A DNA stretch of 32,000 nt from Planctomycetales bacterium (GTDB taxonomy: Bacteria > 4484-113 > JAFGCY01): positions 2,040,001 to 2,072,000 of the forward strand of contig CP060262.1 of NCBI GenBank assembly GCA_022646745.1. The letters are read 5' to 3'. The notes beneath the pieces were generated by a model, which saw nothing but the letters and a program-made list of their open reading frames with translations, did not search any database and was not told the DNA's origin. Positions 2,749 through 28,509 of this stretch are shown in pieces. The position numbers were made by a program, and so were the translations under genes. The stretch's first letter is position 1. Each line of letters opens with the position of its first letter.

Positions 2749-2901
2749 GCCGGAAGGTTGCAGTTTGGTGGTTGGAATGGGGAGGTTTGAAGGGATAAGC
2801 TCGATCATTTCCACCAGGTTTCCTGAATCAGCGCAATAATGTAATGCCCCTGTCATTGTTCGACTGGTTTCGCAGGGAAAGCTGATACTGGACGGAACAC
2901 C

Positions 2902-4572
2902 TTGATCGCACCACGGATCCTCAGGGATCTCAAGACATATGACTTGCCGACCTTCCGCGCCGACCTGCTGGCCGGCCTGAGTGTCGGCGTCGTGGCCCTG
3001 CCGTTGGCGATGGCGTTTGCGATTGCCAGCGGCCTGCCGCCGGAGCGCGGCCTGTTCACGGCCATCGTGGCTGGCCTGCTGATATCCGCACTTGGGGGCA
3101 GCAGCGTGCAGATCGGCGGGCCGACCGGAGCCTTCGTGGTGATCGTGGCCGGCATCAGCGCGCAGTTCGGCTACAACGGCCTTGTAATGGCAACGCTGAT
3201 GGCCGGCCTGCTGCTCTTGCTGTTCGGCATCTGCCGGATGGGGGACATGATCCGCTACATCCCCTTTCCGGTGGTGACCGGCTTCACCGCCGGTATCGCG
3301 CTGATCATCGGCTTCACCCAGCTGCGTGACCTGCTCGGCCTGCGGATGGAATCCCCCTCCGCCGAGTTCCTGCCGCGCCTGGCCGAATACCTCGCAGCCC
3401 TGCCGACGATGCAGCCTGCCTCGCTGGTGCTCGGTGTGGCAACGATTGTGCTGGTGTCGCTGGGGCGGCGCTACCTGCCTAAGTTCCCCACGATGCTCGC
3501 CGTGCTGGTGCTCATCAGCCTGGCGGCGCACTTCCTCGGCAGCGGGGTTGAGACAATCGCATCGCGCTTCGGAGAACTGCCGCGAGCTCTGCCGGCGCCG
3601 GCATTCCCGCTGTTTGACTACGAAATGCTGCGCCAACTGGTCGGCCCGGCCTTCACGATCGCAATGCTGGCTGCGATTGAGTCCCTGCTCAGTGCGACCG
3701 TGGCGGACGGCATGACCGGCGAAAGCCATGACCCGAACACCGAGCTCGCTGCGCAGGGGATTGCCAACATCGGTTCCGTGCTGCTGGGTGGCATCCCGGC
3801 CACGGGCGCGATTGCCCGCACGGCCACGAATGTGCACTGCGGCGCGCGCACCCCTGTCGCCGGCATCATCCACGCCATCAGCCTGGCGCTCCTGCTGGCC
3901 CTGCTGGCGCCGCTGGCCGGGCATATCCCGCTTTGTGCGCTGGCCGGAATCCTGTGCGTGATCGCCTGGAACATGTCTGAGCGGCAGCACTTCGCCCGCA
4001 TCCTGCGCGCCCCGCGCTCCGACAGTGCAGTGCTTGTGATCACCTTCCTGCTGACCGTGCTGGTTGACCTGACAGTGGCCGTGGAAGTTGGCATCGTGCT
4101 GGCCAGCCTGCTGTTCATCCGGCGCATGTCGGAGGTTTCCACGATCACAAGCCCTGGACAGCGCCGCAGCACCGACCCGCTGCCGGATGAGCAGGCGGAT
4201 GCCGCCGAGCAGGAACTGCCCGACGGAGTGGAGGAGTATGAGGTGCAGGGGGCGTTCTTCTTCGGGGCCGCCAGCCGCTTCCGCGAGACCCTGTTCATCG
4301 CCGGCCGCTCATCCCGTGTCGTCATCCTGCGCATGCGCAATGTCCCGGTGATGGATGCCACCGGCAGCCACCTGCTGCGGGAGTTCGCCGAGTCCTGCCA
4401 CAGGGCCGGACGCCAGCTGGTGCTGTCAGGCGTAGCACCGCAGCCGCTGTCGGTGCTGCAGCGCAGCGGAATGCTGGAGCTGATCGGAGCTGACAATGTG
4501 CTGGCCAGCTACACCGATGCTGTGCAGCGGGCGCGAGAGATCATCGATGGCAGCGGGGCGGAACGCGAGTAG
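2902..4572 (+). CDS. SulP-family inorganic anion (sulfate/bicarbonate) transporter with C-terminal STAS domain
   Basis: The N-terminal block RADLLAGLSVGVVALPLAMAFAIASGLPPERGLFTAIVAGLLISALGGSSVQIGGPTGAF is a SulP signature, and there are many TM segments. The C-terminal part (YEVQGAFFFGAASRF...VVILRMRNVPVMDATGSHLL) is STAS-like. The TTG start at 2902 is the first start in the ORF. Confidence 0.9.
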   Translation: MIAPRILRDLKTYDLPTFRADLLAGLSVGVVALPLAMAFAIASGLPPERGLFTAIVAGLLISALGGSSVQIGGPTGAFVVIVAGISAQFGYNGLVMATLMAGLLLLLFGICRMGDMIRYIPFPVVTGFTAGIALIIGFTQLRDLLGLRMESPSAEFLPRLAEYLAALPTMQPASLVLGVATIVLVSLGRRYLPKFPTMLAVLVLISLAAHFLGSGVETIASRFGELPRALPAPAFPLFDYEMLRQLVGPAFTIAMLAAIESLLSATVADGMTGESHDPNTELAAQGIANIGSVLLGGIPATGAIARTATNVHCGARTPVAGIIHAISLALLLALLAPLAGHIPLCALAGILCVIAWNMSERQHFARILRAPRSDSAVLVITFLLTVLVDLTVAVEVGIVLASLLFIRRMSEVSTITSPGQRRSTDPLPDEQADAAEQELPDGVEEYEVQGAFFFGAASRFRETLFIAGRSSRVVILRMRNVPVMDATGSHLLREFAESCHRAGRQLVLSGVAPQPLSVLQRSGMLELIGADNVLASYTDAVQRAREIIDGSGAERE

Positions 4573-4600
4573 TCAGTGGTCAGTGGTCAGAAGGCAGCCG
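4573..4600 (+). repeat. phased heptad array directly after SulP stop
   Basis: Units TCAGTGG TCAGTGG TCAGAAG GCAGCCG start at the base after TAG 4570-4572. This is the same CAGTGGN-type unit seen at 9461-9502, 11372-11434 and 29661-29702. Confidence 0.6.
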
Positions 4601-4646
4601 GCTTGTACCGTGCATCCGCTACAACCCACAACCTATGTCCCAGCTC

Positions 4647-5942
4647 CTAGTACGCCCCTTTCCTTGACAACACGGCGGGGATCGTGCGCAGGATGATCAA
4701 GAGGTCGAGCCCGAGGCTCCAGTTGTTGATGTAGTGCAGGTCGAAGTCGATGCGCTGCTGGTAGCTTGTGTCGCTTCTTCCACTGACCTGCCACAGCCCG
4801 GTCAGGCCCGGCGGCACGGTCAGCAAGAGCGTGGCCCACTGGCCGTACTTCTCCTGTTCCTTCTCGACGATCGCGCGCGGGCCGACCAGTGAGCAGTCGC
4901 CGCGAATGATGTTGATCAGCTGCGGCAGCTCATCGAGGCTGGTCTTGCGCATGATGCTGCCCCACTTCGTGATGCGCGGGTCGTGCTTCAGCTTGTACTT
5001 GTCGTCAAAGCCGTCAAGGTCCACCTTAACCTGCGCCGCGTTGGCAATCATCGAACGGAACTTCACGGCGCGGAAGCGGCGGCCGAACAGGCCCATCCGC
5101 TCGTGCGAGAAGAACACCGGCCCGGGCATCGTGACGAGGATGCCGAGGATGCACACCAGCCACAGCGGCAAGGTGAGGACCAGCAGCAGCGTGCCGAACA
5201 GCACGTCCACCACGCGCTTGATGCGGCGCATCTGCTCAAGGTCCGCGCTGTTCTTGACGTTCAGCACAGCCACGCCCTCGAGGTTGGCAACCGACAGCGC
5301 GCCCTGGGTGGAGGCCCGTGGCAGCAGGCTGATGCCGGCCCGCGGCGGGCTGTTGCCGAGCCGTTGCCACAGCGCTTCGGACTGGGCGGAGTCGCAGAAG
5401 ATCCAGTCGTAGCCATCCTCCGGCAATTGGCTGGCATCCTCGAAGTGGCCCGCCAGGCGGAAGCGCCCGCGGCCGGCCTCAAGCTGGCGCACGAGGTAGT
5501 CCGCCAGTTCGCTGCGTCCGAGCACGACGGCGGTGGCCCGGCCACCGAGCAGGCGGCGGCGGATGCGTCGTGTTGCCATCAGCAGCAGCCAGCTGAGGAA
5601 CACTGCCAGCAGCAGTGCCAGGCGGCTGTCCGGCAGCTCACGCATCGTGAAGGTCAGGATGATCGTGGCAACCAGTCCCTCGGCGACGGAATGCGTCAGT
5701 GAGGCCAGCTCGGCGGAGAAGTCCTGCTTGAGCCGTGCGTAGTACAGGCCGTGCAGGGAGAAGATGAACAGCCACAGCGGCAGCGAGTAGACGGCGAGCC
5801 GCATCCAGTCGGCCTGCGGGATGTCTCCGAGCGGCGCCGCGATCCAGCCGCTGCCGAAGCGGGCGAAGTGCGCCAGCCAGTAGCCGGCGAGGATCGCCAG
5901 TGCATCCACCAGGAGCAGGATCAGCTGTGGCCCGCGGGGCAT
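4647..5942 (-). CDS. polyprenyl-phosphate glycosyl-1-phosphate transferase (bacterial sugar transferase, WbaP/EPS-priming type)
   Basis: The C-terminal domain (KFRSM...KLKHDPRITKWGSIMRKTSLDELPQLINIIRGDCSLVGPRA...PPGLTGLWQVSGRSD) is the Bac_transf signature. It is preceded by 4-5 N-terminal TM segments. Confidence 0.9.
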   Translation of the reverse strand: MPRGPQLILLLVDALAILAGYWLAHFARFGSGWIAAPLGDIPQADWMRLAVYSLPLWLFIFSLHGLYYARLKQDFSAELASLTHSVAEGLVATIILTFTMRELPDSRLALLLAVFLSWLLLMATRRIRRRLLGGRATAVVLGRSELADYLVRQLEAGRGRFRLAGHFEDASQLPEDGYDWIFCDSAQSEALWQRLGNSPPRAGISLLPRASTQGALSVANLEGVAVLNVKNSADLEQMRRIKRVVDVLFGTLLLVLTLPLWLVCILGILVTMPGPVFFSHERMGLFGRRFRAVKFRSMIANAAQVKVDLDGFDDKYKLKHDPRITKWGSIMRKTSLDELPQLINIIRGDCSLVGPRAIVEKEQEKYGQWATLLLTVPPGLTGLWQVSGRSDTSYQQRIDFDLHYINNWSLGLDLLIILRTIPAVLSRKGAY

Positions 5943-5948
5943 GGGAGT

Positions 5949-5954
5949 ATTTTA
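5949..5954 (-). promoter_or_regulatory. candidate -10 box (TAAAAT) 6 nt upstream of sugar-transferase ATG
   Basis: The minus strand reads cccc TAAAAT actccc ATG. There is no SD between box and start, which fits a leaderless transcript. Confidence 0.25.
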
Positions 5955-5962
5955 GGGGAAGT

Positions 5963-5998
5963 GGGAATAGTTGGCGTAGTTTGAATAGTATTAATAGT
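5963..5998 (+). repeat. 9-nt periodic AATAGT array (4 units)
   Basis: Units GGGAATAGT TGGCGTAGT TTGAATAGT ATTAATAGT. The array is AT-rich in a GC-rich context and is inverted relative to the array at 6121-6149. Confidence 0.55.
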
Positions 5999-6120
5999 TC
6001 AGGGTGCCAGACATCAGCTTTCAGGGAAGAAGCAAGGCAGTACGTTGCCAAAGACTGATCTCGTGGTAACGGGTAACTTCGGAAGACAAGGATTCTCTGC
6101 TTCCCAATCCCAGATGGATT

Positions 6121-6149
6121 CCACTATTCGCACTATTCAGACTGTTAAG
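6121..6149 (-). repeat. 9-nt periodic AATAGT array (3 units, minus orientation)
   Basis: The plus strand reads ccACTATTCGC ACTATTCAG ACTGTTAAG, which is minus-strand CTTAACAGT CTGAATAGT GCGAATAGT. It lies just 3' of the GGAG/TGCGCA hairpin, as at 11471-11506 and 15040-15092. Confidence 0.55.
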
Positions 6150-6155
6150 ACGTGT

Positions 6156-6184
6156 CATTGTGCGCAAGCAAGTTGCGCACCTCC
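6156..6184 (-). repeat. GGAG/TGCGCA hairpin module (copy 1 of 4)
   Basis: The minus strand reads GGAGGTGCGCAACTTGCTTGCGCACAATG. Its first G is the last base of the stop codon TAG (6184-6186) of the upstream gene. The stem is 8 bp (GTGCGCAA/TTGCGCAC) around a 5-nt loop. Confidence 0.8.
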
Positions 6185-7095
6185 TAGCCGCCCTGTTCCG
6201 CCTGCTGCAGCTGCATTGCCAGGCGCTGCAGCATGCCGTTGAGCTGCGGCTGGTTCAGCGCTGCAATCTCCTGCATGATGCGGCCGGCCTCGCGCCGGTC
6301 GCCGCTCTGCAGCATCGCCTGCAGCAGGTTGAAGCCGACATTCGGGCCATGCACCTTCAGGTCGTACACCGGCAGTACCAGCTCCAGCATCTCGGCGGCC
6401 AGTCCGGCGCGTCCGAGGATGCCGCTCACCGCCAGCAGCGATTCCGCCGGACGTGCCTTGCCGGCCTCGATCGCCTCGGCAAGGGTCAGCAGAGCAGAGC
6501 CCTTGGCATCATCCTTCAGGTCAACCTCGGCCAGGCGTACGCGCGCCATGTAGGCTCCGGGAAGCTCAGCCACCTTCTCAAGCGCGTCAACGTAGGCATC
6601 CTCACCGCCGGTGCGGCCGGCGATACCGGCGTACCAGTACAGCGCGTTCTCCATGTTCGGCTCATGCTCCAGCGCTTCCCAGAGCAGCGCGCTGACCTCC
6701 GGTTCCGTCTCCGTGCCGGCCTTCTGCGCCGCCACCTGGGCCTGGTTGACGAGGATCACCGCACTCTTGCCGTGCGCCTTGATGTGGTCCTCCAGCAGCT
6801 TGCCGGCATTGGCGGCCGCCCCGTTGTGGATCAGGGCCTGGCTGTACAGCGCGGTGCCGCGGATCGGGTCGTCGTCAATCTCGAACAGGTGCTTGGCAGC
6901 CTCCAGCACCTCGCGGAACATGCGGTGCGTGAAGCCGTCCATGATCAGGTTGGCAAGCTCGCGCGGCTCATCCCAGGCTGCCTTCAGGTTGTCAGGCAGG
7001 ATCTCCGTGCGCCAGGCCTCGCGGTCCACCTGCAGGGGCAGGCCGTTGCCAAGCCGGATCGTGATCTGGTTTTCCTGTTGTGGCGTGCTGTCCAT
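6184..7095 (-). CDS. hypothetical helical-repeat (TPR-like) protein, paralogue of 7096-8097
   Basis: Amino-acid composition is balanced, unlike the R/L/A/H-rich plus-strand shadow ORFs. It shares these blocks with its neighbour: NxENxLxWYA, PVY(D/N)xxxHGPxVGxNLxQAM and ALNxPQ(L/F)N. Confidence 0.75.
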   Translation of the reverse strand: MDSTPQQENQITIRLGNGLPLQVDREAWRTEILPDNLKAAWDEPRELANLIMDGFTHRMFREVLEAAKHLFEIDDDPIRGTALYSQALIHNGAAANAGKLLEDHIKAHGKSAVILVNQAQVAAQKAGTETEPEVSALLWEALEHEPNMENALYWYAGIAGRTGGEDAYVDALEKVAELPGAYMARVRLAEVDLKDDAKGSALLTLAEAIEAGKARPAESLLAVSGILGRAGLAAEMLELVLPVYDLKVHGPNVGFNLLQAMLQSGDRREAGRIMQEIAALNQPQLNGMLQRLAMQLQQAEQGG

Positions 7096-8253: not shown

Positions 8254-9435
8254 ATGAGCGAAATCGACAGTCAGTTCCTCATTCCGTTTACGGATGAGCA
8301 TGAAATGGTGCGTGAGACCGTGCGGGGGCTGGTCAACGACCGCATCGCCCCGCGCGCCATAAGCCTCGACGAGAGCCATGCGTTCCCGCATGAGGCGATG
8401 CAGGAACTGGCTGAGCTTGACCTGCTGGGCATCTACGTGCCTGAGGAATTCGGCGGGGCCGGGATGGACTTCGTGGCCTACGTGATCACGATGGAGGAGC
8501 TGGGCCGCGGCTGTGGTTCCACTGCGCTGACCTATACTGCACACACCGGACTGTGCATCACCCCGATCACCATCCTCGCCAGTGATGAGCAGAAGAAGCG
8601 CTGGCTGCCGGAGCTGTGCAGCGGCAAGAAATACGGCTGCTTCGGCCTCAGTGAGCCGGGCAGCGGTACCGATGCCGGTTCGCTGACCACCACCGCCGTG
8701 CGCGACGGCGACGACTACATCATCAACGGCACGAAGATGTGGATCACCAACGGCAAGTATGCCGGATATATGGTGACCACCTGCAAGACGGACCCCTCCC
8801 AGGGCCGCGGCAAGGGCATCAGCTCGCTTGTGGTGCCGATGGATTCCCCCGGCGTGAGCGTGATCAAGGAGGAGGACAAGCTTGGCCTGCGGGCCAGCTC
8901 CACCGCCCAGGTGTTCCTCGATAACGTACGCGTGCCGGCGGAGAACCTGATCGGTGAGGAGAATGACGGCTTCCCGGCCTTCATGAAGACGCTTGAGGGC
9001 GGGCGCATCGCGATTGCCGCGATGGCACTCGGCCTGGCGCAGAGCGCCTATGAGCGCAGCATCGAGTACGCCAAGCAGCGTGAGACCTTCGGCCGTCCTC
9101 TGGCCGGGCACCAGACGATCCAGAACTACCTCGCCGACATGGCGATGAAGATCGAGGCAGCCCGCCTGCTGGTCTACCGCGCGGCCTTCATGAAGGACGC
9201 CGGCCTGCCCTTCGGCAAGGAAGCCAGCATGGCCAAGCTGTTCACCACCGAGATGGCGATGGAAGTCACGAGCAATGCGATCCAGGTCCACGGCGGCTAC
9301 GGTTATGTGCGTGAGTTCGAGGTGGAGCGCATCTGGCGTGACGCCAAGCTGTGTACTATCGGAGAGGGCACAAGTGAGATCCAGCAGGTGATCATCGCCC
9401 GCAACATCCTCGGAGACGCGGCCAAGGCCGTCTGA
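8254..9435 (+). CDS. acyl-CoA dehydrogenase (short/branched-chain type)
   Basis: Full-length ACAD: FGLSEPGSGTDAGSL, KMWITNG, and the C-terminal QVHGGYGYVREFEVERIWRDAKLCTIGEGTSEIQ signature. GTG 8248 is an alternative start two codons upstream. Confidence 0.9.
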   Translation: MSEIDSQFLIPFTDEHEMVRETVRGLVNDRIAPRAISLDESHAFPHEAMQELAELDLLGIYVPEEFGGAGMDFVAYVITMEELGRGCGSTALTYTAHTGLCITPITILASDEQKKRWLPELCSGKKYGCFGLSEPGSGTDAGSLTTTAVRDGDDYIINGTKMWITNGKYAGYMVTTCKTDPSQGRGKGISSLVVPMDSPGVSVIKEEDKLGLRASSTAQVFLDNVRVPAENLIGEENDGFPAFMKTLEGGRIAIAAMALGLAQSAYERSIEYAKQRETFGRPLAGHQTIQNYLADMAMKIEAARLLVYRAAFMKDAGLPFGKEASMAKLFTTEMAMEVTSNAIQVHGGYGYVREFEVERIWRDAKLCTIGEGTSEIQQVIIARNILGDAAKAV

Positions 9436-9436: not shown

Positions 9437-9467
9437 GGAGGCCAGACGAGAGTCTGGCAACATTGGG
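9437..9467 (+). repeat. post-stop GGAG/GNRA hairpin module (copy 1)
   Basis: It begins 1 nt after TGA 9433-9435. The sequence is GGAG GCCAGAC GAGA GTCTGGC AACATTGGG, a 7-bp stem with a GAGA loop. It is near-identical to 11348-11378. Confidence 0.7.
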
Positions 9468-10522: not shown

Positions 10523-11341
10523 TTGGACGTGGCAGGGAACCAGGCACAACAGGATCGCGACCTTGAGCAGTTGCTCGGGCCTTACCGCAAATGGCGCAAG
10601 CAGTGGATTGACGTGATTGCTCCCGCGATCAACAACCACAAGTTTGACGATGCCAGGGCAATGCTGGCTGCTGCACGGGAATCGGCCCGCTCATCCGAAC
10701 ATGCTGAGGAATTGCGTGAGGCGATGGAGTACCTTGTCGACTTCACGGAATGCCGTGTCAACTGGCATCCGGACAGCCATGGATACGGCCAGCGAGTGTA
10801 TGACGAGAAGATCCGCCGCTTCAGCAGGCCCGCGCGCGGTCGGCTGGGCGACTGCATCCGGCGCATGTACCTCGTCTACATCCGCTGCAACGGCACCTCA
10901 GACACATTTGACAACCTGACCAAGGGTGAGATCGAGGAAATCCTCGAACCGCTGCCCGAGCGGATGTCCGGCCCCGCCTGGCAGCAGATCGCCCGCTGGG
11001 CCTTCGAGCACAACGAGCTGGAAACGCTTGAGCGGGCCTTTGAGATGTTCCTGATCTACCCCGGCGAGGAGATGGGGCAGGCGAAATGGCAACGGGTCAA
11101 CCTGATGTACCAGCTGCTGTCCGGCAAGGCCACACGCCGCGATGTGTATGAGTCGATCATCCTGCTGGAGCTGAAGCCGCAGCTGCGTGAATTCAAGACT
11201 GAGTTCTGGCCGCGCTGCATTGCAATGGGGCTGGTTGACAGCGAACTGGAGCAGCTGCTGGCCGGGCGTGAGGCTGAGATCAGGTCCAGGGATTCCGTTG
11301 TCAAACCGGAAGCGAAGACCAAGTCACTGCTGGGGAAATAG
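10523..11341 (+). CDS. hypothetical alpha-helical protein, paralogue of 9566-10330
   Basis: The TTG start is placed by homology to the neighbour's N-terminus. It has the same conserved blocks and a K/S-rich C-terminal tail. Confidence 0.75.
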   Translation: MDVAGNQAQQDRDLEQLLGPYRKWRKQWIDVIAPAINNHKFDDARAMLAAARESARSSEHAEELREAMEYLVDFTECRVNWHPDSHGYGQRVYDEKIRRFSRPARGRLGDCIRRMYLVYIRCNGTSDTFDNLTKGEIEEILEPLPERMSGPAWQQIARWAFEHNELETLERAFEMFLIYPGEEMGQAKWQRVNLMYQLLSGKATRRDVYESIILLELKPQLREFKTEFWPRCIAMGLVDSELEQLLAGREAEIRSRDSVVKPEAKTKSLLGK

Positions 11342-11347
11342 CGGGCG

Positions 11348-11371
11348 GGAGGCCAGACGAAAGTCTGGCAA
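11348..11371 (+). repeat. post-stop GGAG/GNRA hairpin module (copy 2)
   Basis: Located 6 nt after TAG 11339-11341. The sequence is GGAG GCCAGAC GAAA GTCTGGC AA, and it runs straight into the heptad array. Confidence 0.75.
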
Positions 11372-11434
11372 CAGTGGGCAGTGGGCAGTTGTCAGTGGGC
11401 AATAGGCAGAAGGCAGTAGGCAGAAGGCAGCGGT
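11372..11434 (+). repeat. nine strictly phased heptads (CAGNNGG type)
   Basis: Units CAGTGGG CAGTGGG CAGTTGT CAGTGGG CAATAGG CAGAAGG CAGTAGG CAGAAGG CAGCGGT, with no phase slip. Confidence 0.9.
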
Positions 11435-11435
11435 C

Positions 11436-11464
11436 GGAGGTGCGCAACTTGTTTGCGCACAATG
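11436..11464 (+). repeat. GGAG/TGCGCA hairpin module (copy 2 of 4)
   Basis: GGAGGTGCGCAACTTGTTTGCGCACAATG. Confidence 0.85.
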
Positions 11465-11470
11465 TAGCGG

Positions 11471-11506
11471 TGGAGCAGTCTGAATGGTCCGAATAGTGCT
11501 AACAGT
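11471..11506 (+). repeat. 9-nt periodic array (AATAGT type)
   Basis: Units TGGAGCAGT CTGAATGGT CCGAATAGT GCTAACAGT, each ending in GT at 9-nt spacing. Confidence 0.5.
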
Positions 11507-11539
11507 TCCGGTGGCTGAACTAATAAACGATAACCTTTC

Positions 11540-11548
11540 TGCTATTCT
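11540..11548 (+). promoter_or_regulatory. candidate extended -10-like box TGCTATTCT
   Basis: It sits 7 nt upstream of ATG 11556, and there is no SD. Confidence 0.2.
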
Positions 11549-11555
11549 GCTGCTC

Positions 11556-12122
11556 ATGCTGGATTGGTTGTTCAACAGAAAGAAGCGTGAACCGGTTGAC
11601 CCGAATGATCTTGAGCCCCATTGGCAAAGGGACTGGCCCCTGGCAATACACCTGCCGAAGGGTGGCCATTTCGAGCGCGGCAAACCCTCGCACTACTTCA
11701 ACTGGAGCTTGCACCGTGATCATGTCGGGCCTGGTGGTTTCTACAACGTCGAGGGTGTGATGAATGTCTTCCCCGGTCGGCCGAAAGATGGTCCACTGCA
11801 TCCCCTGCTGCTGCCATTCATGATGATGGAGCTGTTTCCGCCGGAGGCACGCTACCTGAATGTTGGTGTGATGCTGCCGGCGGGAGGCAGAGAATGGACA
11901 GTGGTGCAGGCAATCCTGCCGAGTGATGGTGTGCGTGGCAACGAACCCGTGCGCCTTTTCTCCTGCATGACCGGTATGGAAGGGGAACCGGATCTGTTCG
12001 TATCTCTGCTGTGCATGCACTACCATCCCGAGGCACCGGATCTGCTTGAACGGCTGAAGGCCATGCTAGGCGGTGCTGATGGAGAATGGGACATGCGGCC
12101 GTGGCCTGAATCCAAGGTATGA
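11556..12122 (+). CDS. hypothetical protein
   Basis: I start it at ATG 11556 (MLDWLFNRKKREP...), because the upstream part of the track ORF (from 11484) runs through the repeat array. Composition looks like a normal soluble protein. No family recognised. Confidence 0.6.
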   Translation: MLDWLFNRKKREPVDPNDLEPHWQRDWPLAIHLPKGGHFERGKPSHYFNWSLHRDHVGPGGFYNVEGVMNVFPGRPKDGPLHPLLLPFMMMELFPPEARYLNVGVMLPAGGREWTVVQAILPSDGVRGNEPVRLFSCMTGMEGEPDLFVSLLCMHYHPEAPDLLERLKAMLGGADGEWDMRPWPESKV

Positions 12123-13205: not shown

Positions 13206-13254
13206 CTACCGCTGAAGCAGGTAGCTCCTTGCCTGGCTTGCGCCAGACTCTCCC
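13206..13254 (-). repeat. post-stop GGAG/GNRA hairpin (stem-swapped variant) followed by GGAGCTACC hairpin variant
   Basis: After TAG (13257-13259) the minus strand reads GT GGGAGA GTCTGGC GCAA GCCAGGC AA GGAGCTACCTGCTTCAGCGGTAG. Confidence 0.65.
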
Positions 13255-13256: not shown

Positions 13257-14783
13257 CTACCTCACCACCGCCGGCACCGGCAGGCTTGAGCCGCCCTTCT
13301 CAGCCGTGGTCGACTTGATCACTTCGCGGCTCTTCACGATCAGCACATTGCTCACCGGGCGTTCGTTGCTTTCCGCGATGTTCATCAGCTGGCCGGCCAC
13401 CACCATCGCCGAGCTGCCGCCGCCGTCCAGGTTCATCGCCACGACCGCGCCCTCGTCGATCATGATCTGCGCCAGTGCTTCCAGTGTCACGCCGCCAAAG
13501 CCCTGGCTCTCCACTTCCTTGACCACCACGATCAGGAGCTGCCCGGAGGGGGTCAGACCGACCGCCGTACGGCTGCGCTCGCTCTTGGCGATGTCCGCCT
13601 GCACACTGTCCTCGGCGGAGGAGATGTAGACCTTGCCACCCTCCACGAGCATCGGCGCCCCTCCGATCGCCGAGCGCGCCGGGATCACATTGCCCAGCTT
13701 GTCCGTGATCACCGTCTGCAGCTTCACGTCGTCACCCTTGCGGATGTTGCGCAGCGGGTTGACCTCCGGCATGATGTCGCTCGCCACCAGCAGCTGCCCG
13801 CTGCCGAGGGTGATGCCGCTGGTCTTGGTGTCCACGTAGCGCATCGCGCCGCCTTCCAGCATGAAGTAGTAGATCCCGCTCTGCGGCAGGCTGTCCAGCG
13901 GGTAGCGCGAGTCATAGACCATCACCTTGCCGCTGACGTAGGGGTAGTTCTTCGCGGAGATCGGGATCTTGGCCTTTGGGCCGACGAGCGCGGTCTCGAT
14001 GTTGTAGCGGCCGATCGCCACCTGGCCGCCCTCGCTCACGATCAGCATCGGACGCGTCGGGTAGACCCCGGTGGCGCGGATCAGCCCATCCTCCACCAGT
14101 GTGGAAAGGTGCTCACCGGCGCGGCCGAAGAAGCCGCCGTTGATCACCACCTCCGCTCCCTCGCGGCGGGCGAAGCTGGAGGGGGCGCGTTTGCGGGTCT
14201 TGCCGTCATAGCGGTCGGCGGAGGCGGAGAAGATGTCCACGCCGAGCGCCGGGTCGATGCGCACGAGGTACAGCGTGAAGTTCTGGTTGCGGTAGGTGCT
14301 GTTCTTCTGCGAAAGGCTGATGCCATCGGCCAGCTGCGTGACCTGCTCGGAGCGGCTGGCCGTCGGGAAGCGCAGGAACCAGGAATTGCCGTCGTAGCGG
14401 ATGAAGGGCCGGTTGTACTGGTTGAGGTAAAAGCCGAGCGAGAGGTTGCCGTTGGCCGCGAACACGCTGACGCGGGTCAGCAGGTGGTGGTTGATGTTGC
14501 CCAGTTCCTCGATGCGCTGCGGTGTGAGTGAGGAGCCGCAGCCCTCGATGGTCAGCAGGTAGCGGTCCGGGTCGTAGCGAAATGACTCGGTGAGCGCCTT
14601 GGGGCGCGTGTCGAAGGCCAGCTCGACCTCGATGTAATAGCCGCTGCGGTTGACGTTCACTGCGCTGAGCTTGCTGGCCGCTTCGGCCGCGGCGGGCCTG
14701 AGCAGCACGCAGGCGCTGAGCAGCAGGCAGGCGAGAGCGCGCAGTGGCGCGAAGGTGGCGATTCGGGATACAGCCGTGATCAT
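13257..14783 (-). CDS. secreted phosphodiester glycosidase family protein (NAGPA/DUF2233-like) with N-terminal AMIN-like domain
   Basis: Family blocks are VVINGGFFG, AIGGAPMLVEGGKV, RTAVGLTPSGQLLIVVV and GVTLEALAQIMIDEGAVVAMNLDGGGSSAMVV. ATG 14783 gives a signal peptide (MITAVSRIATFAPLRALACLLLSACVLL) and has AGGA 5 nt upstream. ATG 14807 is the longer alternative. Confidence 0.85.
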   Translation of the reverse strand: MITAVSRIATFAPLRALACLLLSACVLLRPAAAEAASKLSAVNVNRSGYYIEVELAFDTRPKALTESFRYDPDRYLLTIEGCGSSLTPQRIEELGNINHHLLTRVSVFAANGNLSLGFYLNQYNRPFIRYDGNSWFLRFPTASRSEQVTQLADGISLSQKNSTYRNQNFTLYLVRIDPALGVDIFSASADRYDGKTRKRAPSSFARREGAEVVINGGFFGRAGEHLSTLVEDGLIRATGVYPTRPMLIVSEGGQVAIGRYNIETALVGPKAKIPISAKNYPYVSGKVMVYDSRYPLDSLPQSGIYYFMLEGGAMRYVDTKTSGITLGSGQLLVASDIMPEVNPLRNIRKGDDVKLQTVITDKLGNVIPARSAIGGAPMLVEGGKVYISSAEDSVQADIAKSERSRTAVGLTPSGQLLIVVVKEVESQGFGGVTLEALAQIMIDEGAVVAMNLDGGGSSAMVVAGQLMNIAESNERPVSNVLIVKSREVIKSTTAEKGGSSLPVPAVVR

Positions 14784-14870
14784 GTGCGTCCTGACAGATG
14801 AATACATTTCAATATTACCGGTCCCACTCCAGCATGGATATGATCGTAGCTTGTGGGGAGGGGAATAAAA

Positions 14871-14920
14871 GGGATCAGGGACCGGGGACCGGGAGCTACC
14901 TGCTTTAGCAGTAGTGGCTC
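14871..14920 (+). repeat. three heptads running in phase into GGAGCTACC hairpin module
   Basis: GGGATCA GGGACCG GGGACCG followed by GGAGCTACCTGCTTTAGCAGTAGTGGCTC (14892-14920). The same 29-mer occurs inverted at 28510-28538. Confidence 0.8.
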
Positions 14921-14927
14921 ACATTGG

Positions 14928-14968
14928 GGGATGTGGGATGGGGGATGGGCAGAAGGGATCGGGGAACA
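14928..14968 (+). repeat. phased heptad array (GGGATGN type)
   Basis: Units GGGATGT GGGATGG GGGATGG GCAGAAG GGATCGG GGAACAG. Confidence 0.8.
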
Positions 14969-14999
14969 GGGAACAGTAGCAGCGGCGTCCCCGCCGCTG
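14969..14999 (+). repeat. GGGAACAGTAG + CAGCGGCG hairpin module (copy 1)
   Basis: GGGAACAGTAGCAGCGGCGTCCCCGCCGCTG, with an 8-bp stem CAGCGGCG/CGCCGCTG. It repeats at 15093-15123 with one loop substitution. Confidence 0.8.
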
Positions 15000-15004
15000 T
15001 GATT

Positions 15005-15033
15005 GGAGGTGCTCAACTTGTTTGCGCACAATG
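15005..15033 (+). repeat. GGAG/TGCGCA hairpin module (copy 3 of 4)
   Basis: GGAGGTGCTCAACTTGTTTGCGCACAATG, with one mismatch in the left arm. Confidence 0.8.
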
Positions 15034-15039
15034 GAACGC

Positions 15040-15092
15040 CTGAATAGTCTCAATAGTTTGGATAGTGATGATAGTCGGGAAAGTCAGGAATA
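15040..15092 (+). repeat. 9-nt periodic AATAGT array (6 units)
   Basis: Units cTGAATAGT CTCAATAGT TTGGATAGT GATGATAGT CGGGAAAGT CAGGAATAG. Confidence 0.7.
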
Positions 15093-15123
15093 GGGAACAG
15101 TAGCAGCGGCGCCCCCGCCGCTG
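15093..15123 (+). repeat. GGGAACAGTAG + CAGCGGCG hairpin module (copy 2)
   Basis: GGGAACAGTAGCAGCGGCGCCCCCGCCGCTG. Confidence 0.8.
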
Positions 15124-15386
15124 GGTGGGCAGATCTCGTTACGGCTACATATCTCTTGAGGCATGCTCTGGCCGGGTCCTTGTCGTTGACTTTCAGCATT
15201 GCTTGATTTCCAGCGCTCGTGCCTAGCGCTGCTGCGCGGCCTCCGGCCTTGCCTGGATGAATGCTTGCCTGGCGGTTACTCAGCAACAATCACGAAGGGC
15301 AGCTTTGTGAACTCTGTACCCTGTGTGGTTAAACCGCTTTAGCACAGCTGATCAGTGCCTCCGATGGTGTAGCTTCGCAGCTCCTA

Positions 15387-15414
15387 CCCATCCCGCATCC
15401 CGCATCCCACATCC
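15387..15414 (-). repeat. phased heptad array (GGGATGN type, minus orientation)
   Basis: The plus strand reads CCCATCC CGCATCC CGCATCC CACATCC. On the minus strand it runs into TAGGAGCT-GCGA-AGCTAC (15386-15369), a weak GGAG/GNRA hairpin. Confidence 0.7.
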
Positions 15415-15426
15415 CGCAGTTTCCCC

Positions 15427-18610: not shown

Positions 18611-20356
18611 TCAGTCCGCCGCCAGCTTGGCGATCATCGTCAAGGGGCCATAGGGCAGGGCCGGGCCGCTGGCGTGGTTGCGGAAGCCCAGCAGGCTGAG
18701 CATCGTGTACTGGCGGAACCAGGCCGGCTGCTGCTGGCGGGATTCCACCTTGAGGAAGTTGTCACCCCAGCCCGACGAGATATTCGGCAGCTCACTGACT
18801 GCAATGCGTTGGCGGCTGAGCAGCGTGCCATGCGCATCCAGCAGGCTGTGTCGGCAGCAGTACTGTATGTAGTGGCTGGCGGACTTCCCCGGGACGCTGA
18901 ACAGCAGCGGGGTGACGTTGTCAATCGGCTCAAGCACATGCACGAACAGCCGGCCGCTACTGGACTGCGCATAGACCTGGCCGCCGCGCGGTACCGGGAT
19001 TGGCTCCAGCAGGCCCTCTGCAGTGCAGGCCTGCAGGGTCCCGGCATCACTGCGCCAGTAGCCGTATCCGCCATGGTACTGCGGTGACTGCCCGGTTTCC
19101 AGCCTGGACTGCCACAGCACATTTCCATCCCAGTCCATCGCCAGCAGCTCGCGCTCGTGGCTGAGCAGCAGCTGTCCCTCGTAGGGGAAGTAGTAGTCAT
19201 TGTCCAGCGCGGAACTACCCAGCGGGTTGGCGGTTTCCCAGAGGACATTCAGCTCACTGTCCAGGCCCACCAGCTTGCTGTCCGTCGCCAGCAGGTGGCG
19301 CTCGCCGGAGCTGTCAGAGACCAGGAAATCAGTCAGCTTAAGGCTGAATATGGAATTGATGGGAACATTAAAGTAATCCCATTCAAATGGCTCATTCTGG
19401 CATCCGCCATATTTGTCATAATCCATTTCGTCCTTTCGCCAGAGCACACCGGCCGCACTGTCAACCAGAAGCAGGCTGGAGTGGGCCGGGTCTGCGGCGT
19501 TCTCCAGGTGCACTGCGAAGCGCTCACCGGCGGCGCTGAGGCACATCCTGCCCGAAGCGGGAGTGTCAGTGCTGAACCTCGCCAGCTCCTGCAAAGCGCT
19601 GTCGAGGATCCAGAAGCTGCCGTGGCGATCCGTCACCAGCAGGCAGCCATTACTCACGGACAGCACCGGCTCATTCCCGGTGGGACATTGCCAGCTCGCC
19701 TGCGCGCGCATTTTCGGGGAATAGAGTCTGATGCCGGAGCCACTGCGTGTCACGATCCCGATGCCTGACAGCGGGAAGCTGTACTCAGGGTCCAGCTCGA
19801 CATCCGCGCCGTGGACATTGCCGGCTGCGTCAATGTACAGCATGCGTGGTTCAGTGGTGCAGATGAATACGCCGTCATCCGGGCCGGCCTCCGTGGACTG
19901 GATCGTGCTGCCCTCGCTGAAGCTGATGCTGCGTTGCCAGATCGCCCTGCCGGACAGGTCAAAGCCACTCAACTGACAGGATGCTTCGCCACTGGACTGG
20001 CCCAGCACCAGCACCGGGCCGGCCGCGCAGTCAAAGCGCGGGAAGTGACTGTCGGCCTCAACCGCTTGCCGCCAGAGTTCGTCCTGCCCACGGAAAGCCA
20101 CCAGCAGGCCGTTGCTGATGGTGAAGTACTGTTCTTCCGGCCCCTGGCAGAATCCATAGCGCACACGGGTAGCGGGCAGCGAGCAGATGAAACCGCCGGT
20201 GTTCGGCGGCGGGGCACTGGCTCCTTCGATCAGCATGTAGCGCACATGCTGCCCCGGGTCGCGCGGTGCGGAAAGCTTCAGCGGGACGAGTGCAAGGCTG
20301 CCCAAGAGCCAGATTGCCACAAACAGCATTGCCACCCGCTTCTGCAGCAGCCTCAT
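18611..20356 (-). CDS. membrane-anchored beta-propeller-like repeat protein, paralogue 2 of 4
   Basis: I take the start as ATG 20356 (MRLLQKRVAMLFVAIWLLGSLAL). The longer track ORF overlaps the upstream gene. Repeats include SGRAIWQRS, AGVLWRKD, LNVLWETA and DWDGNVLWQS. It also has DRHGSFWIL and MLSLLGF motifs. Confidence 0.8.
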   Translation of the reverse strand: MRLLQKRVAMLFVAIWLLGSLALVPLKLSAPRDPGQHVRYMLIEGASAPPPNTGGFICSLPATRVRYGFCQGPEEQYFTISNGLLVAFRGQDELWRQAVEADSHFPRFDCAAGPVLVLGQSSGEASCQLSGFDLSGRAIWQRSISFSEGSTIQSTEAGPDDGVFICTTEPRMLYIDAAGNVHGADVELDPEYSFPLSGIGIVTRSGSGIRLYSPKMRAQASWQCPTGNEPVLSVSNGCLLVTDRHGSFWILDSALQELARFSTDTPASGRMCLSAAGERFAVHLENAADPAHSSLLLVDSAAGVLWRKDEMDYDKYGGCQNEPFEWDYFNVPINSIFSLKLTDFLVSDSSGERHLLATDSKLVGLDSELNVLWETANPLGSSALDNDYYFPYEGQLLLSHERELLAMDWDGNVLWQSRLETGQSPQYHGGYGYWRSDAGTLQACTAEGLLEPIPVPRGGQVYAQSSSGRLFVHVLEPIDNVTPLLFSVPGKSASHYIQYCCRHSLLDAHGTLLSRQRIAVSELPNISSGWGDNFLKVESRQQQPAWFRQYTMLSLLGFRNHASGPALPYGPLTMIAKLAAD

Positions 20357-20439
20357 TCTGATGAGTGCAATGTCAAGACCCACAGGCAATGATACCCGCT
20401 TTGCCAATTCCTTGTGTGAAGACGGCCCCGCGAGCGGCG

Positions 20440-22233
20440 TCAGCGCTCTTCCAGCAGGAATTCGCAACGTGCAAATCCCTTGTGTGGGCCGCCTGTTCCG
20501 AGTGCCTTGCCAAAGCCTGCCAGGCTGAGCATGCTGCGGCTGCGTGCCCACGCTGGGATCGTGGCGGCGGATACTGAAGCGGGCACGCCGCCCCCGGCAT
20601 GCACAGCGCTGTCCACACTGAGGAATGGCAACCTGCCTCGATGCAATTCCTCGCCGGACAGATTGACAACCCGGTGCAGGATGCACAGTTGGTTCGAGCC
20701 TGAATGCGGCCTGTGCTGCATCAGTTCCATGAAGTAGTTCAACGGGCTGTTACAGGGCGTGTACTGGTGGACCAGCAGTTCCCCTTCCCACTCCTGGCAA
20801 CTGAAGCCGGTGCTGCCGATCGGCAGTCGGGGCTCCAGCAGCCTGCCGTCCTGCATCACCTGCAGCAGGCCGGAGCTGTGGATCCAGGCGCAGTAGCTGG
20901 TGCCAACAAATGCTTCCGAGTCCTTTGCAATGTCGTCATACCAGAGCAGTTCGCCAGCGGGGGAGACTGCCAGCAGCGGGTCACTGACCTGTGGATTGAA
21001 ACCGAAGACTTCAAACTGGACTCCACGCAGGATCAGGTTGTCATCCGGCAGGGGAATCCCGCTGGGCTGGAGCAGGCTGTCAATGCCGACCAGGGGCAGC
21101 TGCCAGCGCAGGCTGGTATCAGCACCGATGCAGGCCAGGCCATCGCGGCTCTGGATCAGCATGCTGCCATCATCCCAGCCCGGCACCAGCAGGTCCGCCA
21201 GCGGTGGATTCTCCAGCAGGTCATCACCTTCGCGCCATGTGTAGCTGTCCCATGGCCCGAAGGAGTAGTCAAAGTTGTGTGGCAGCTTCAGGCGTGGGGC
21301 GGTGATGGTCCAGCTGTGACGGCCGCTGCTGTCAAACATCCAGAGCTCGCCGTAGCCCAGTTGCAGTCCGTGCTCCTTGCCAAGCAGGATCGCGGTGCAA
21401 TCTCCCATTGAATAGACATGCAGCAGCTTGCTGAAGGCTGGATCAGCGCTGAAGCTGAACAGTTCCTCCAGCTGCATGTTGAGCCCCCAGTAGTGGCCAT
21501 CACCATCGTTGGCAATGATCACAGGTCCCTGGTAGTGCACCGAGTCAATCCGGCCTGTCGGGCTATGCCAGCTGTGCAGCTCCCGCATGTGCAGGTCATA
21601 GTATGCGAGCCTGTCCCCCACCGGTGTGATGATGCAGCGGTTGCGCACCAGCAGCGAATCGTGGATTGACATGCTCGCCGCGGGAACTGGCAACAGCCGT
21701 CCATCAGGAGCGACCGGCTGGATGTCTCCATCGTTCAGTAGCACCAGTGCAAAGCCGTCAGCCCCGACGCATACGCTAGCCTCCTGCGGATAATCATATT
21801 GTCCACCCAGCGGTGTGGTCCAGAGCAGCTCTCCATCGCTGCTGACGGCACTCAAGCTGGTCAGCTCCTTGTCACTGTCACGCTGCATTACGCGGAACTG
21901 CCTGTCCCCGAAATCTGATGAGACCAGCACGCTGTTTGCGGCGACCTCCAATCGCCATTGTTCCGTTCCGTCGTCAAGGTAAACGAGCTGGCCGTCGTCG
22001 ATGTAGTACTCGAGCTGTGGCCATTCGCCGTATTCAAGATCGTCAGTTTCCCAGAGTGAGGAATCTGAGTACCGGTATGCTTCGAATCGGTAAGTAATGT
22101 CCAGCTGTGACGGATCATGCTGCCGGGCCAGCCTCGCGACCCCGATCAGCAGGCAGCCTGTGAGCCACAGGGTAAAGAACAGCAAGCCGCAGCGCAGCAC
22201 AGTCCTTTGGAAGCGGGCCGCCCTGTCCCCCAT
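20440..22233 (-). CDS. membrane-anchored beta-propeller-like repeat protein, paralogue 3 of 4
   Basis: The start is ATG 22233 (MGDRAARFQRTVLRCGLLFFTLWL), with GGGAG 5 nt upstream and only 10 nt after the stop of the preceding gene. Repeats include DGELLWTT, TSLRWQLPL and AGELLWYD. It also has DGDGHYWGL and MLSLAGFG motifs. Confidence 0.8.
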   Translation of the reverse strand: MGDRAARFQRTVLRCGLLFFTLWLTGCLLIGVARLARQHDPSQLDITYRFEAYRYSDSSLWETDDLEYGEWPQLEYYIDDGQLVYLDDGTEQWRLEVAANSVLVSSDFGDRQFRVMQRDSDKELTSLSAVSSDGELLWTTPLGGQYDYPQEASVCVGADGFALVLLNDGDIQPVAPDGRLLPVPAASMSIHDSLLVRNRCIITPVGDRLAYYDLHMRELHSWHSPTGRIDSVHYQGPVIIANDGDGHYWGLNMQLEELFSFSADPAFSKLLHVYSMGDCTAILLGKEHGLQLGYGELWMFDSSGRHSWTITAPRLKLPHNFDYSFGPWDSYTWREGDDLLENPPLADLLVPGWDDGSMLIQSRDGLACIGADTSLRWQLPLVGIDSLLQPSGIPLPDDNLILRGVQFEVFGFNPQVSDPLLAVSPAGELLWYDDIAKDSEAFVGTSYCAWIHSSGLLQVMQDGRLLEPRLPIGSTGFSCQEWEGELLVHQYTPCNSPLNYFMELMQHRPHSGSNQLCILHRVVNLSGEELHRGRLPFLSVDSAVHAGGGVPASVSAATIPAWARSRSMLSLAGFGKALGTGGPHKGFARCEFLLEER

Positions 22234-22243
22234 GCCTGCTCCC

Positions 22244-27468: not shown

Positions 27469-27495
27469 AAAAAGCCCCCCGGAAATCCGAGGGGC
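27469..27495 (-). terminator. rho-independent terminator / attenuator between tRNA-Leu and ileS
   Basis: The minus strand reads GCCCCTCGG-ATTT-CCGGGGGGC followed by TTTTT. The stem is 9 bp with one G-U pair. It ends 41 nt upstream of the ileS ATG. Confidence 0.6.
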
Positions 27496-27504
27496 CTGAT
27501 GATT

Positions 27505-27608: not shown

Positions 27609-27690
27609 TGCCGGGAACCGGACTCGAACCGGTACGGGTTACCCCGGGAGATTTTAAGTCTCCTGCGTCTGCCAATTCCGCCATCCCGGC
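27609..27690 (-). tRNA. tRNA-Leu (anticodon UAA)
   Basis: The minus strand folds as a type-II cloverleaf. The acceptor is GCCGGGA/TCCCGGC with discriminator A, and the D-stem is 3 bp. The anticodon stem GGAGA/TCTCC carries loop CTTAAAA, there is a long variable arm, and the T-arm is ACCGG-TTCGAGT-CCGGT. No CCA is encoded. Confidence 0.9.
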
Positions 27691-27735: not shown

Positions 27736-28212
27736 CTAGCGGCCGCGGCGCTTCTTCGCCTTCTTCTTGTCTCCGCCGTTGCGCTTGCGCTCGATGTTGC
27801 GCTTGTTGTCCAGCAGGTTCTCCTCGCTGGAACGCTTGAAGCGCTTGAACATCATGTCAAACTCCATGCCGCGGGTGTTGTCGTCATAGAAGTTGAACTG
27901 CGGAGGCTCACCGAGGTATTCCACGGCGGGAAGGTGATTATGCTCACGCTCCTGCTTGGGCGGGCGGGTGTACTCCTGGTTTTCGGCCTGCTTGAGGGAA
28001 AGCTCAATCCTGCCGTCTTCCTTTACGGATAACACCTTGATCTTGACCTTCTGGTTCGGCTTGACCAGATTGTGGATGTCCTTGACGTAGTCGTCGCTGA
28101 TCTCACTGATGTGGATCAGGCCCTTGCGTCCGTCATCCAGCCAGACAAAGGCTCCGAAGTCCCGCACCTCTGCGATCCGACCTTGAATCACGTCATTGGC
28201 TGCGATACTCAT
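27736..28212 (-). CDS. S1 RNA-binding domain protein (YabR / general-stress-protein-13 like) with basic tail
   Basis: The S1 OB fold is GRIAEVRDFGAFVWLDDGRKGLIHISEISDDYVKDIHNLVKPNQKVKIKVLSVKEDGRIELSLKQ. The start is ATG 28212, preceded by AAGGAGGTG. The GTG at 28221 used by the track lies inside that SD. Confidence 0.85.
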   Translation of the reverse strand: MSIAANDVIQGRIAEVRDFGAFVWLDDGRKGLIHISEISDDYVKDIHNLVKPNQKVKIKVLSVKEDGRIELSLKQAENQEYTRPPKQEREHNHLPAVEYLGEPPQFNFYDDNTRGMEFDMMFKRFKRSSEENLLDNKRNIERKRNGGDKKKAKKRRGR

Positions 28213-28298
28213 GCTAATCACCTCCTTTTGCGCGCTGATTGCCTTTGCTCACACGAAACGGGAGTGCCCCGGTGCGGCGCAGTACTGCGCGAGCGAAG

Positions 28299-28307
28299 AT
28301 TCTACCA
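28299..28307 (-). promoter_or_regulatory. candidate extended -10 box TGGTAGAAT
   Basis: The minus strand reads tatGGTAGAAT, about 87 nt upstream of the S1-domain gene start and immediately downstream of the G-rich heptad array. Confidence 0.3.
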
Positions 28308-28315
28308 TAAATGGC

Positions 28316-28413: not shown

Positions 28414-28509
28414 TCGATCGCCGGATCGACCAGCGGAAGCCATTCCCAAGGAGTGGCATAGATTGGAAGTAGAAGCTTTTTTCCACAACGTACCACATTC
28501 GTCAGGTGC

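Follow-up and report, generated by a model that had tools for sequence, protein, structure and literature searches.

Architecture of the locus

The window analysed here is a 32,000-nucleotide stretch of the genome of a Planctomycetales bacterium (contig CP060262.1, positions 2,040,001 to 2,072,000). Between two of its open reading frames (ORFs), at 11342-11510, lies an intergenic string of small repeats. An earlier note had described this string as a hairpin, nine heptads, a second hairpin and a set of 9-nt units, and our analysis confirms that layout base by base. The locus is probably a cluster of independent small repeats resembling a bacterial interspersed mosaic element (BIME), in which two classes of repetitive extragenic palindrome (REP) accompany a heptad microsatellite, and not a single element. 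Its features are the following.

11339-11341 (+): stop codon TAG of the ORF at 10523-11341, separated by 6 nt (CGGGCG) from the first hairpin
11348-11372 (+): predicted REP of class A, with head GGAG, 7-bp stem GCCAGAC/GTCTGGC, loop GAAA and tail AAC (sequence reading, folds)
11372-11434 (+): microsatellite of nine CAGTRGN-type heptads without gaps, lacking a canonical G-quadruplex (G4) motif (sequence reading, Tandem Repeats Finder)
11436-11464 (+): predicted REP of class B, GGAGGTGCGCAACTTGTTTGCGCACAATG, with head GGAG, 8-bp stem GTGCGCAA/TTGCGCAC, loop CTTGT and tail AATG
11471-11506 (+): 9-nt array, four units of NNNAATAGT type with (A/G)GT ends (sequence reading)

A single C separates the last heptad (11434) from hairpin B (11436). 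Tandem Repeats Finder reports the heptads at 11372-11430, with a period of 7, 8.4 copies and 0% indels. The (A/G)GT ends of the 9-nt units fall at 11479, 11488, 11497 and 11506, a spacing of 9 nt; the 3' boundary of this array is uncertain, the next ORF starting at 11484 or later. Both hairpins are present in the centroid folds of RNA and DNA, where the heptads remain unpaired.

The modules of the locus occur far above chance expectation. The 29-nt module B has four exact copies in the window and module A has two, with none expected in either case. Period-7 arrays of at least three copies number 11 in the window; 40 dinucleotide shuffles gave 0.15 on average and never more than 1.

The earlier view that the string is non-coding and neither a CRISPR array nor a U-tract terminator is borne out. 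No T-run follows hairpin A or B in the sequence, and the terminator scan lists neither hairpin. As for CRISPR, the units here are 7 or 9 nt long and contiguous, and the two hairpins are unlike in sequence. The Rfam search that had been proposed returned nothing relevant, either at gathering thresholds over the whole window or in E-value mode over 11300-11560 and 28200-29760.

Hairpins and their cognate transposase genes

Comparison loci (L numbers) and proteins (P numbers) from other genomes and metagenomes relate the hairpins to a family of transposases. At L009, an inverted pair of module B copies, 414-442(+) and 1162-1190(-), surrounds a 220-aa ORF (P0001). This ORF matches NCBIfam REP_Tyr_transpos with 89.3 bits (cutoff 80), Pfam Y1_Tnp with 7.5e-10 and the Escherichia coli TnpArep structure (PDB 4ER8) with 1.2e-9; by homology it is a REP-associated tyrosine transposase (RAYT), an HUH/Y1 enzyme. 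A homologue search found RAYT paralogs in the same group of metagenome-assembled genomes (MAGs), five further ones in number, each flanked by its own class of GGAG hairpin.

P0003, at L026: flanks GGAG-GCGCGCAA-CTTGT-TTGCGCGC (class B variant)
P0002, at L028: flanks GGAG-GTGCGACA-CTTGY-TGTCGCAC (class B variant)
P0012, at L027: flanks GGAG-GTCACCC-GNNA-GGGTGAC (A-type class)
P0007, at L028: flanks GGAG-G(C/T)CAG(A/T)CC-CAY-..., module A type
P0009, at L031 (AC1.30): flanks GGAG-GCCAAGCT-GTA-AGCTTGGC (A-type class)

Each of the six RAYT genes in the related MAGs (UBP7-labelled and AC1.30) lies between inverted copies of the GGAG-hairpin class that belongs to it, the arrangement by which a REPtron is defined (PMC2817692, PMC3333891). 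The HUH and catalytic tyrosine motifs are kept in all six, and across eight aligned RAYTs PNH(V/L)H and Y(I/V)xxNPV do not vary. Judged by sequence, hairpins A and B are two REP classes with cognate RAYTs in related genomes, a result that supports the earlier suggestion of a BIME-like, non-autonomous mobile mosaic.

The stems of class B are 98.1% paired, with four of the eight pairs changed on both sides and a covariation score that none of 500 shuffles reached. The stem variant (GTGCGCAA, GCGCGCAA or GTGCGACA) tracks the RAYT paralog. Across 131.5 kb of window and related loci, 82% of it coding, we count 88 intergenic and 9 genic GGAG hairpins, while the control tags GCAG, GGTG, GGCG and CTAC give 3-8 intergenic and 7-22 genic ones. 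About 15 tagged hairpins lie in the window.

The consensus of the GGAG hairpins reads GGAG, G(C/T)N..., loop, ...N(G/A)C, AAY, the tail past the stem being AAT or AAC; no further conservation is found among them 5' of the head. Class C carries a bulge (GGAGCTACCTGCTTTAGCAGTAG). The statement that every stem-loop begins with GGAG holds for nearly all of them, the exception being a fourth REP class with the classical GTAG head at 14976-14999, 15100-15123 and 29632-29655(-).

Each RAYT paralog occurs at one locus per genome fragment examined. P0003 (L026 4033-5624) and P0002 (L028 3950-5624) share the same neighbourhood in two genomes, with genes for a HAD hydrolase, AspRS, thioredoxin and a ParA-like protein, which fits vertically inherited, domesticated RAYTs. 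L028 also contains two different RAYTs, 1.2 kb apart.

Exact module B was found in only 3 of 185,579 species-representative genomes, namely two UBP7-labelled MAGs and AC1.30, all belonging to this lineage. Together with the synteny to AC1.30 described below, this places the window in an uncultured bacterium close to AC1.30; a cyanobacterial source, first suggested by the STRR-like heptads and the 62% G+C, was rejected on these grounds. When metagenomes were scanned with a relaxed B pattern, 12 loci came up, ten of them chance matches within genes (e.g. ATP synthase, DnaK); L013 and L017 are real. On a metagenome contig of 67% G+C (L034, 55-1000), a RAYT 38% identical in sequence (P0018) is accompanied by GGAG-GCCCGAC-TTCA-GTCGGGC hairpins and a 12-nt tandem repeat, GGAGGCGCCCTC; to judge from this locus, the GGAG head may reach past the UBP7-labelled MAGs. 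In a Chloroflexota MAG (L033, 5124-6000 and 6650-7420), palindromes with a GTAC head, CGCGACAT..ATGTCGCG, flank RAYT P0043, and both intergenic gaps adjoining it contain heptad arrays that are not G-rich.

Heptad arrays

Among the sequences examined, period-7 arrays are intergenic in 51 cases and genic in 11, whereas periods 6 and 9 are mainly genic; seven is therefore the characteristic intergenic repeat length here. The units fall into two families, GGGNNNN, which is G4-capable, and CAGT(A/G)GN, which is not and to which the array at 11372-11434 belongs. The type of heptad is independent of REP class. Nor do heptads run in phase into the GGAG head as a rule, contrary to the earlier note: the phase differs among loci.

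Of 30 intergenic arrays, 26 have their nearest gene on the 5' side of the G-rich strand. By position, 18 of the 30 are in sense after a stop codon, eight in antisense before a start and four elsewhere; 26 thus conform to the placement reported for heptamers of the GGGNATC/GGGGAYT kind (PMC4692102). Arrays of the CAGTGGN type had been said always to lie in sense after a stop; this is true of all four CAGTRGN sites in the window and of most in relatives, but not of L005 6376-6422 or L010 2759-2783. Heptads of other types are, in addition, found in antisense ahead of gene starts, as at 14871-15123 and 15389-15418 in the divergent gap.

By unit length and placement, the heptads are intergenic heptamer microsatellites like those of Xanthomonas and Nostoc. 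The only analogue named earlier was the short tandemly repeated repetitive (STRR) sequences of cyanobacteria; other counterparts are REP/RAYT systems for the hairpins and the Xanthomonas and Nostoc heptamers (PMC4692102) for the heptads and their position rule.

Polarity, placement and turnover

In all 23 cases the heptad array has the same orientation as the REP, which stands at the 3' end of the G-rich strand in 19 and at its 5' end in four. REPs that begin 0-6 nt past a stop codon are in sense in 11 instances and in antisense in one, and the latter is a RAYT flank. Five of the stop-adjacent REPs use the G of the TAG stop as the first G of their GGAG head. Within the window, the five stop-adjacent REPs all lie on the strand of their gene with both strands represented, which indicates that REP polarity tracks genes and not one replication direction. 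The informative orientation tests are the one by nearest gene end and the count of stop-adjacent REPs; restricted to tandem gaps, the comparison (about 6-7 sense and 3-4 antisense regions) is too small for significance.

Among called genes of the window and L001-L028, TAG terminates 36 of 98, TGA 48 and TAA 14; the share of TAG seems high for 62% G+C. For GTAG REPs, it is known that REP termini can supply TAG stops (PMC3733652).

REP copies are gained and lost, and heptad copy number shifts greatly, between orthologous sites. Window 2822-5962 has a syntenic counterpart, 84-87% identical, in locus L008 of AC1.30. The gap between the SulP and sugar transferase genes contains three heptads in the window, and REPs are absent from it; in L008 it contains 17 heptads together with three B copies, two in tandem and one inverted. 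L001 and L005, which have a common upstream flank and are apparently orthologous, hold one A, about 1.5 heptads and B in the first case, and two A, 13 heptads and B in the second. Inverted REP doublets occur at some other loci (L002, L004, L010). The earlier view of the string at 11342-11510 as the "complete copy" of one modular element is therefore not supported, as the modules occur independently and in varied combinations, with insertions and deletions of whole modules at orthologous sites.

Other module sites in the window

The further sites listed in the earlier note contain the same module types. They are given here with the strand on which each is read.

4568-4600 (+): three to four heptads of TCAGTGG type, beginning at the TAG stop (4570-4572) of the SulP gene; no REP
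6156-6184 (-): REP class B, its first G common with the TAG stop of the ORF at 6184-7095(-)
6150-6118 (-): 9-nt AATAGT array, after the REP B of 6156-6184
9437-9461 (+): REP class A, 1 nt past the TGA at 9433-9435, then degenerate heptads to about 9495
13206-13253 (-): tandem REPs, 3 nt past the stop of the ORF at 13257-14807(-), one A-like (13231-13253) and one of the bulged class C, GGAGCTACCTGCTTCAGCGGTAG (13206-13228)
14871-15123 (+): large mosaic in a divergent gap, starting with heptads, REP C (14892-14914) and heptads (14925-14976), continuing with a GTAG-headed REP (14976-14999) and a REP B with one stem mismatch (15005-15033), and ending with a 9-nt array (15034-15075) and a GTAG-headed REP (15100-15123)
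15389-15418 (-): heptads of GGGATGC type, antisense to carA and upstream of it, with 27 nt to its probable start (15446)
28311-28607 (both strands): convergent composites, the plus half with heptads 28311-28397 and a GGAG hairpin 28408-28431, the minus half with heptads 28607-28547 and REP C 28538-28516
29145-29227 (+): heptads of GGTTTCN/GGGATC types, then REP B (29199-29227), with a terminator-like hairpin (29087-29117) just upstream
29632-29739 (-): cluster directly past the TAG stop (29740-29742) of the PolB gene, with a REP of GGAG head and GCCAAGCT-GTA-AGCTTGGC (29739-29702), heptads (29701-29663) and a GTAG-headed REP (29655-29632)

The longest ORF for carA, with a GTG start at 15323, would include the heptads at 15389-15418. 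These are most likely intergenic, since the Pfam domain of carA starts at residue 55 and no in-frame ATG precedes the one at 15446. The GCCAAGCT hairpin at 29702-29722(-) is of the class that flanks RAYT P0009 in L031.

Among the sequences examined, 9-nt NNNAATAGT arrays are found in the window only, at 5965-5999(+), 6118-6150(-), 11471-11506(+) and 15034-15075(+); three of them directly follow a REP B. Relatives carry instead 6-nt CAGAAN arrays (present also at window 29240-29262) or 9-nt CACAGAGGA arrays.

Genes of the window, which has a G+C content of 62%, were mapped by codon-position GC and Pfam, a simple gene model. They include TamB, a SulP permease, a sugar transferase, an acyl-CoA dehydrogenase, CarA, IleRS, an S1-domain protein, a family B DNA polymerase and tRNA-Leu. 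The 1.5 kb at 28222-29739 are without a convincing gene and contain a strong terminator-like hairpin with T-run at 29087-29117(+), which suggests an unannotated plus-strand transcript (the small ORF 28639-28893 or a noncoding RNA). The tRNA-Leu(TAA) gene at 27609-27690(-) is followed by the only textbook intrinsic terminator of the window, at 27472-27497(-), so that the host can use terminators of hairpin and U-run, though most window genes have none. Three long predicted ORFs at 18611-23965(-), namely 18611-20686, 20440-22479 and 22244-23965, overlap by about 240 nt, and two of them have weak PQQ/beta-propeller matches; their true starts are probably further downstream.

Comparison with known repeat systems

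The REP/RAYT REPtrons of Escherichia, Pseudomonas, Stenotrophomonas and Xanthomonas (PMC2817692, PMC3333891, PMC8266576) resemble the present system in many respects. Common to both are short GC-rich palindromes (22-29 nt) whose unpaired tetranucleotide head lies on the 5' side and which, here within the loci counted, are extragenic and numerous, RAYT genes bracketed by inverted REPs, several RAYT/REP pairs per lineage, co-evolution of stem and RAYT paralog, and RAYT loci that are syntenic across genomes. In contrast, the head here is GGAG and not GT(A/G)G, the AAY tail is conserved, copies are mostly head-to-tail and in gene sense, and the host is an uncultured UBP7-labelled lineage and not one of the Proteobacteria. 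The REP heads GT(A/G)G+GA of Xanthomonas and Pseudomonas do contain GGAG next to the palindrome. The GTAG/CGTC superfamilies (Di Nocera 2013, PMC3733652) differ in head from classes A, B and C, and only the fourth class here has GTAG.

BIMEs, too, are clusters located between genes, in which REP classes are combined with short linker motifs and which are often found at the 3' end of a transcription unit. Classical ones, however, alternate REP orientation and have fixed linkers, whereas here the REPs point the same way and the heptad linker is variable. The locus is not a classical BIME, since both of its REPs are on the plus strand and the linker is a microsatellite. Similarly, the REPINs (REP doublets) of Pseudomonas fluorescens (PMC5581495, PMC8049555) form REP populations with vertically inherited, non-duplicated RAYTs, and inverted doublets exist at some loci here; yet most copies are singlets or head-to-tail strings, unlike the inverted doublet that defines a REPIN. 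The subterminal hairpins of IS200/IS605 elements share the combination of a hairpin and a 5' guide tetranucleotide for a Y1 HUH transposase acting on single-stranded DNA, but the present REPs are dispersed without a transposase gene, each RAYT paralog having a single locus per fragment.

The heptamers GGGNATC and GGGGA(C/T)T of Xanthomonas and Nostoc, including the cyanobacterial STRR (PMC4692102), are tandem 7-nt units enriched between genes, in sense just past stops or in antisense just before starts. They too form convergent pairs and vary in copy number among relatives, and the GGGNNNN-type arrays here are G4-capable as well. The CAGTRGN units differ in not being of G4 type, and the heptads here are joined to REPs, always co-oriented with them. 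The heptamer study reported no link to mobile elements (PMC4692102).

The features that go beyond the descriptions we found are the GGAG head, the unbroken co-orientation of heptads with REPs and the sense REPs just past stops. Strict heptad-REP polarity might be the one feature beyond known kinds. To our knowledge, neither REP/RAYT mosaics nor heptamer microsatellites have been described in this lineage.

Proposed mechanism

By analogy with the biochemistry of RAYT and IS200/IS605 (PMC8266576), the hairpin would fold in single-stranded DNA, where the RAYT would recognise the stem-loop together with the unpaired GGAG, the presumed counterpart of the GTAG recognition and guide sequence of E. 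coli. The enzyme would then cut at a nearby dinucleotide chosen with the help of the head, and copy REPs in trans. Under the published cross-complementarity rule (PMC8266576), the cleavage dinucleotide for GGAG would be CT or CC. The heptads may grow and shrink by slippage.

Because REPs lie 0-6 nt past stops in sense and canonical terminators are scarce, the composite is probably transcribed as 3' untranslated region (UTR). There, more tentatively, GC-rich hairpins could block 3' exonucleases or help to terminate transcripts, as the REPs of E. coli do. A hairpin within a few bases of a stop might also stand in the path of the terminating ribosome; E. coli REPs reportedly have such an effect on expression (the work of Liang, Rudd and Deutscher in 2015).

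Weighing the interpretations

Several points weigh against a BIME-like cluster of REPs. The 32-kb window contains no RAYT gene, and the cognates are known only from relatives, the closest at 84-87% nucleotide identity. The GGAG head is unlike the GTAG/CGTC of the described REP superfamilies. Most comparison loci were fetched for holding module B or a RAYT, which biases copy densities upward, the orientation and the genic/intergenic ratios being less affected by this choice; and the hairpin census demands pairing, which makes the count of stem diversity partly circular. A pure 3' UTR role is likewise at odds with the presence of composites in the divergent gap (14871-15418) and upstream of starts in antisense. 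Together with the convergent pairs in the tandem gap at 28311-28607, the divergent-gap composites indicate that a 3' UTR role is not the whole story. Furthermore, since either orientation gives the same palindromic hairpin, RNA hairpin function alone would leave the sense bias unexplained.

It is possible, if on balance unlikely, that the modules are primarily selected as cis-acting RNA elements of the 3' UTR (U-tract-less terminators, 3'-exonuclease blocks or processing sites), the RAYT link being secondary. The 11 to 1 excess of sense REPs past stops and the 18 of 30 heptad loci in sense after stops agree with such a role, as do the stability of the hairpins in RNA folds and the finding that terminator-like sites of hairpin and T-run are at background level in the window; E. 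coli REPs reportedly influence both termination and the stability of mRNA (see the summaries in PMC3733652 and PMC2817692). Against it stand the bracketing of six RAYT genes by the same hairpins, the presence or absence of whole modules at orthologous sites, and the eight of 30 heptad loci and many REPs that lie upstream of starts or in the divergent gap. A 3' UTR role is compatible with a BIME-like cluster as an added, exapted function.

We consider it improbable that the heptads are made or maintained by the RAYT/REP system rather than being independent filler. The proposal is based on the arrays lying on the head (5') side of the REPs, co-oriented with them and adjoining the flanking gene. 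The unit CAGT(A/G)GN may be read as CA, a RAYT cleavage dinucleotide in Marinomonas, plus GT[AG]G, the classical REP guide head. If RAYT-made, the arrays could be tandem copies of cleavage site and guide arising from repeated cleavage and strand transfer. At more distant RAYT loci, heptads are absent in Methylobacter (L032) and some are present in Chloroflexota (L033), and this small sample shows no consistent heptad-RAYT link.

A further proposal, that the heptad array is a sense-strand G4 element like the GGGNATC repeats of Xanthomonas, seems quite unlikely. Canonical G4 motifs are intergenic in 13 cases and genic in four, those inspected (in the window and in intergenic gaps) lie within GGGNNNN-type arrays, and similar units form G4 in vitro (PMC4692102). 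But the array at 11372-11434, with units such as CAGTGGG and CAGAAGG, has only three G3 runs and no canonical motif, as is the case for most CAGTRGN arrays; for this array G4 formation was rejected.

That A, heptads, B and 9-mers form one composite non-autonomous transposon, comparable to a MITE (a transposable element of the miniature, inverted-repeat kind) and moving as a unit of which 11342-11510 would be a complete copy, is very unlikely. The order stop, A-type REP, heptads, REP B does recur at window 11342 and at L001, L002, L004 and L005. However, the common upstream flanks in L001/L005 and in L002/L004 suggest orthologous sites and not independent insertions. Modules also stand alone (heptads at 4568-4600; B at a stop, 6156-6184) or in other orders and combinations (L013, L003, window 14871-15123), the type of heptad is not tied to REP class, and the 9-nt array is restricted to the window among the sequences examined. 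Unlike a MITE, the composite has no terminal inverted repeats around it, no target-site duplications are evident, and its length and content vary across loci and orthologous sites.

Finally, module B could hardly be a translation signal whose hairpin joins GGAGGTG, a perfect Shine-Dalgarno match, to the ATG of a small ORF with the 9-nt repeats as codons: although B begins GGAGGTG and ends ATG, the host apparently uses GGAGG as Shine-Dalgarno sequence (AAGGAGGTGATTAGCATG at the S1 gene) and the 9-nt period is coding-compatible, two copies reading M(T/E)RLNSLNS..., the ATG at 11462 runs immediately into TAG, ORFs past other B copies have 1 to about 60 codons and no common sequence, and the ATG of L009 is out of frame with the RAYT gene, so that such a mini-ORF was rejected for want of a conserved reading frame.

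Significance

The contigs with the PolB gene of the window (L023-L025), all short and from independent assemblies, stop no more than a few hundred bases from the 3' end of the gene, where the repeat cluster begins. This agrees with repeats of this kind breaking short-read metagenome assemblies; they can also mislead gene callers at the ends of ORFs.

A BIME-like cluster of REPs and heptads at this locus would extend REP/RAYT systems to an uncultured UBP7-labelled lineage with several RAYT paralogs and a GGAG head. That head would offer a natural test of the guide-tetranucleotide model for the choice of cleavage site. The heptamer microsatellites are physically and directionally coupled to REPs, apparently the first such case, and give a lead on the origin of the cyanobacterial heptamers, which have been known for decades. 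If the RAYT/REP system did make the heptads, this would define a polar heptad-plus-REP unit, and would provide a mechanistic origin for the heptamers of cyanobacteria (STRR) and Xanthomonas (GGGNATC), both of which also have RAYT-type or GTAG-tagged REPs.

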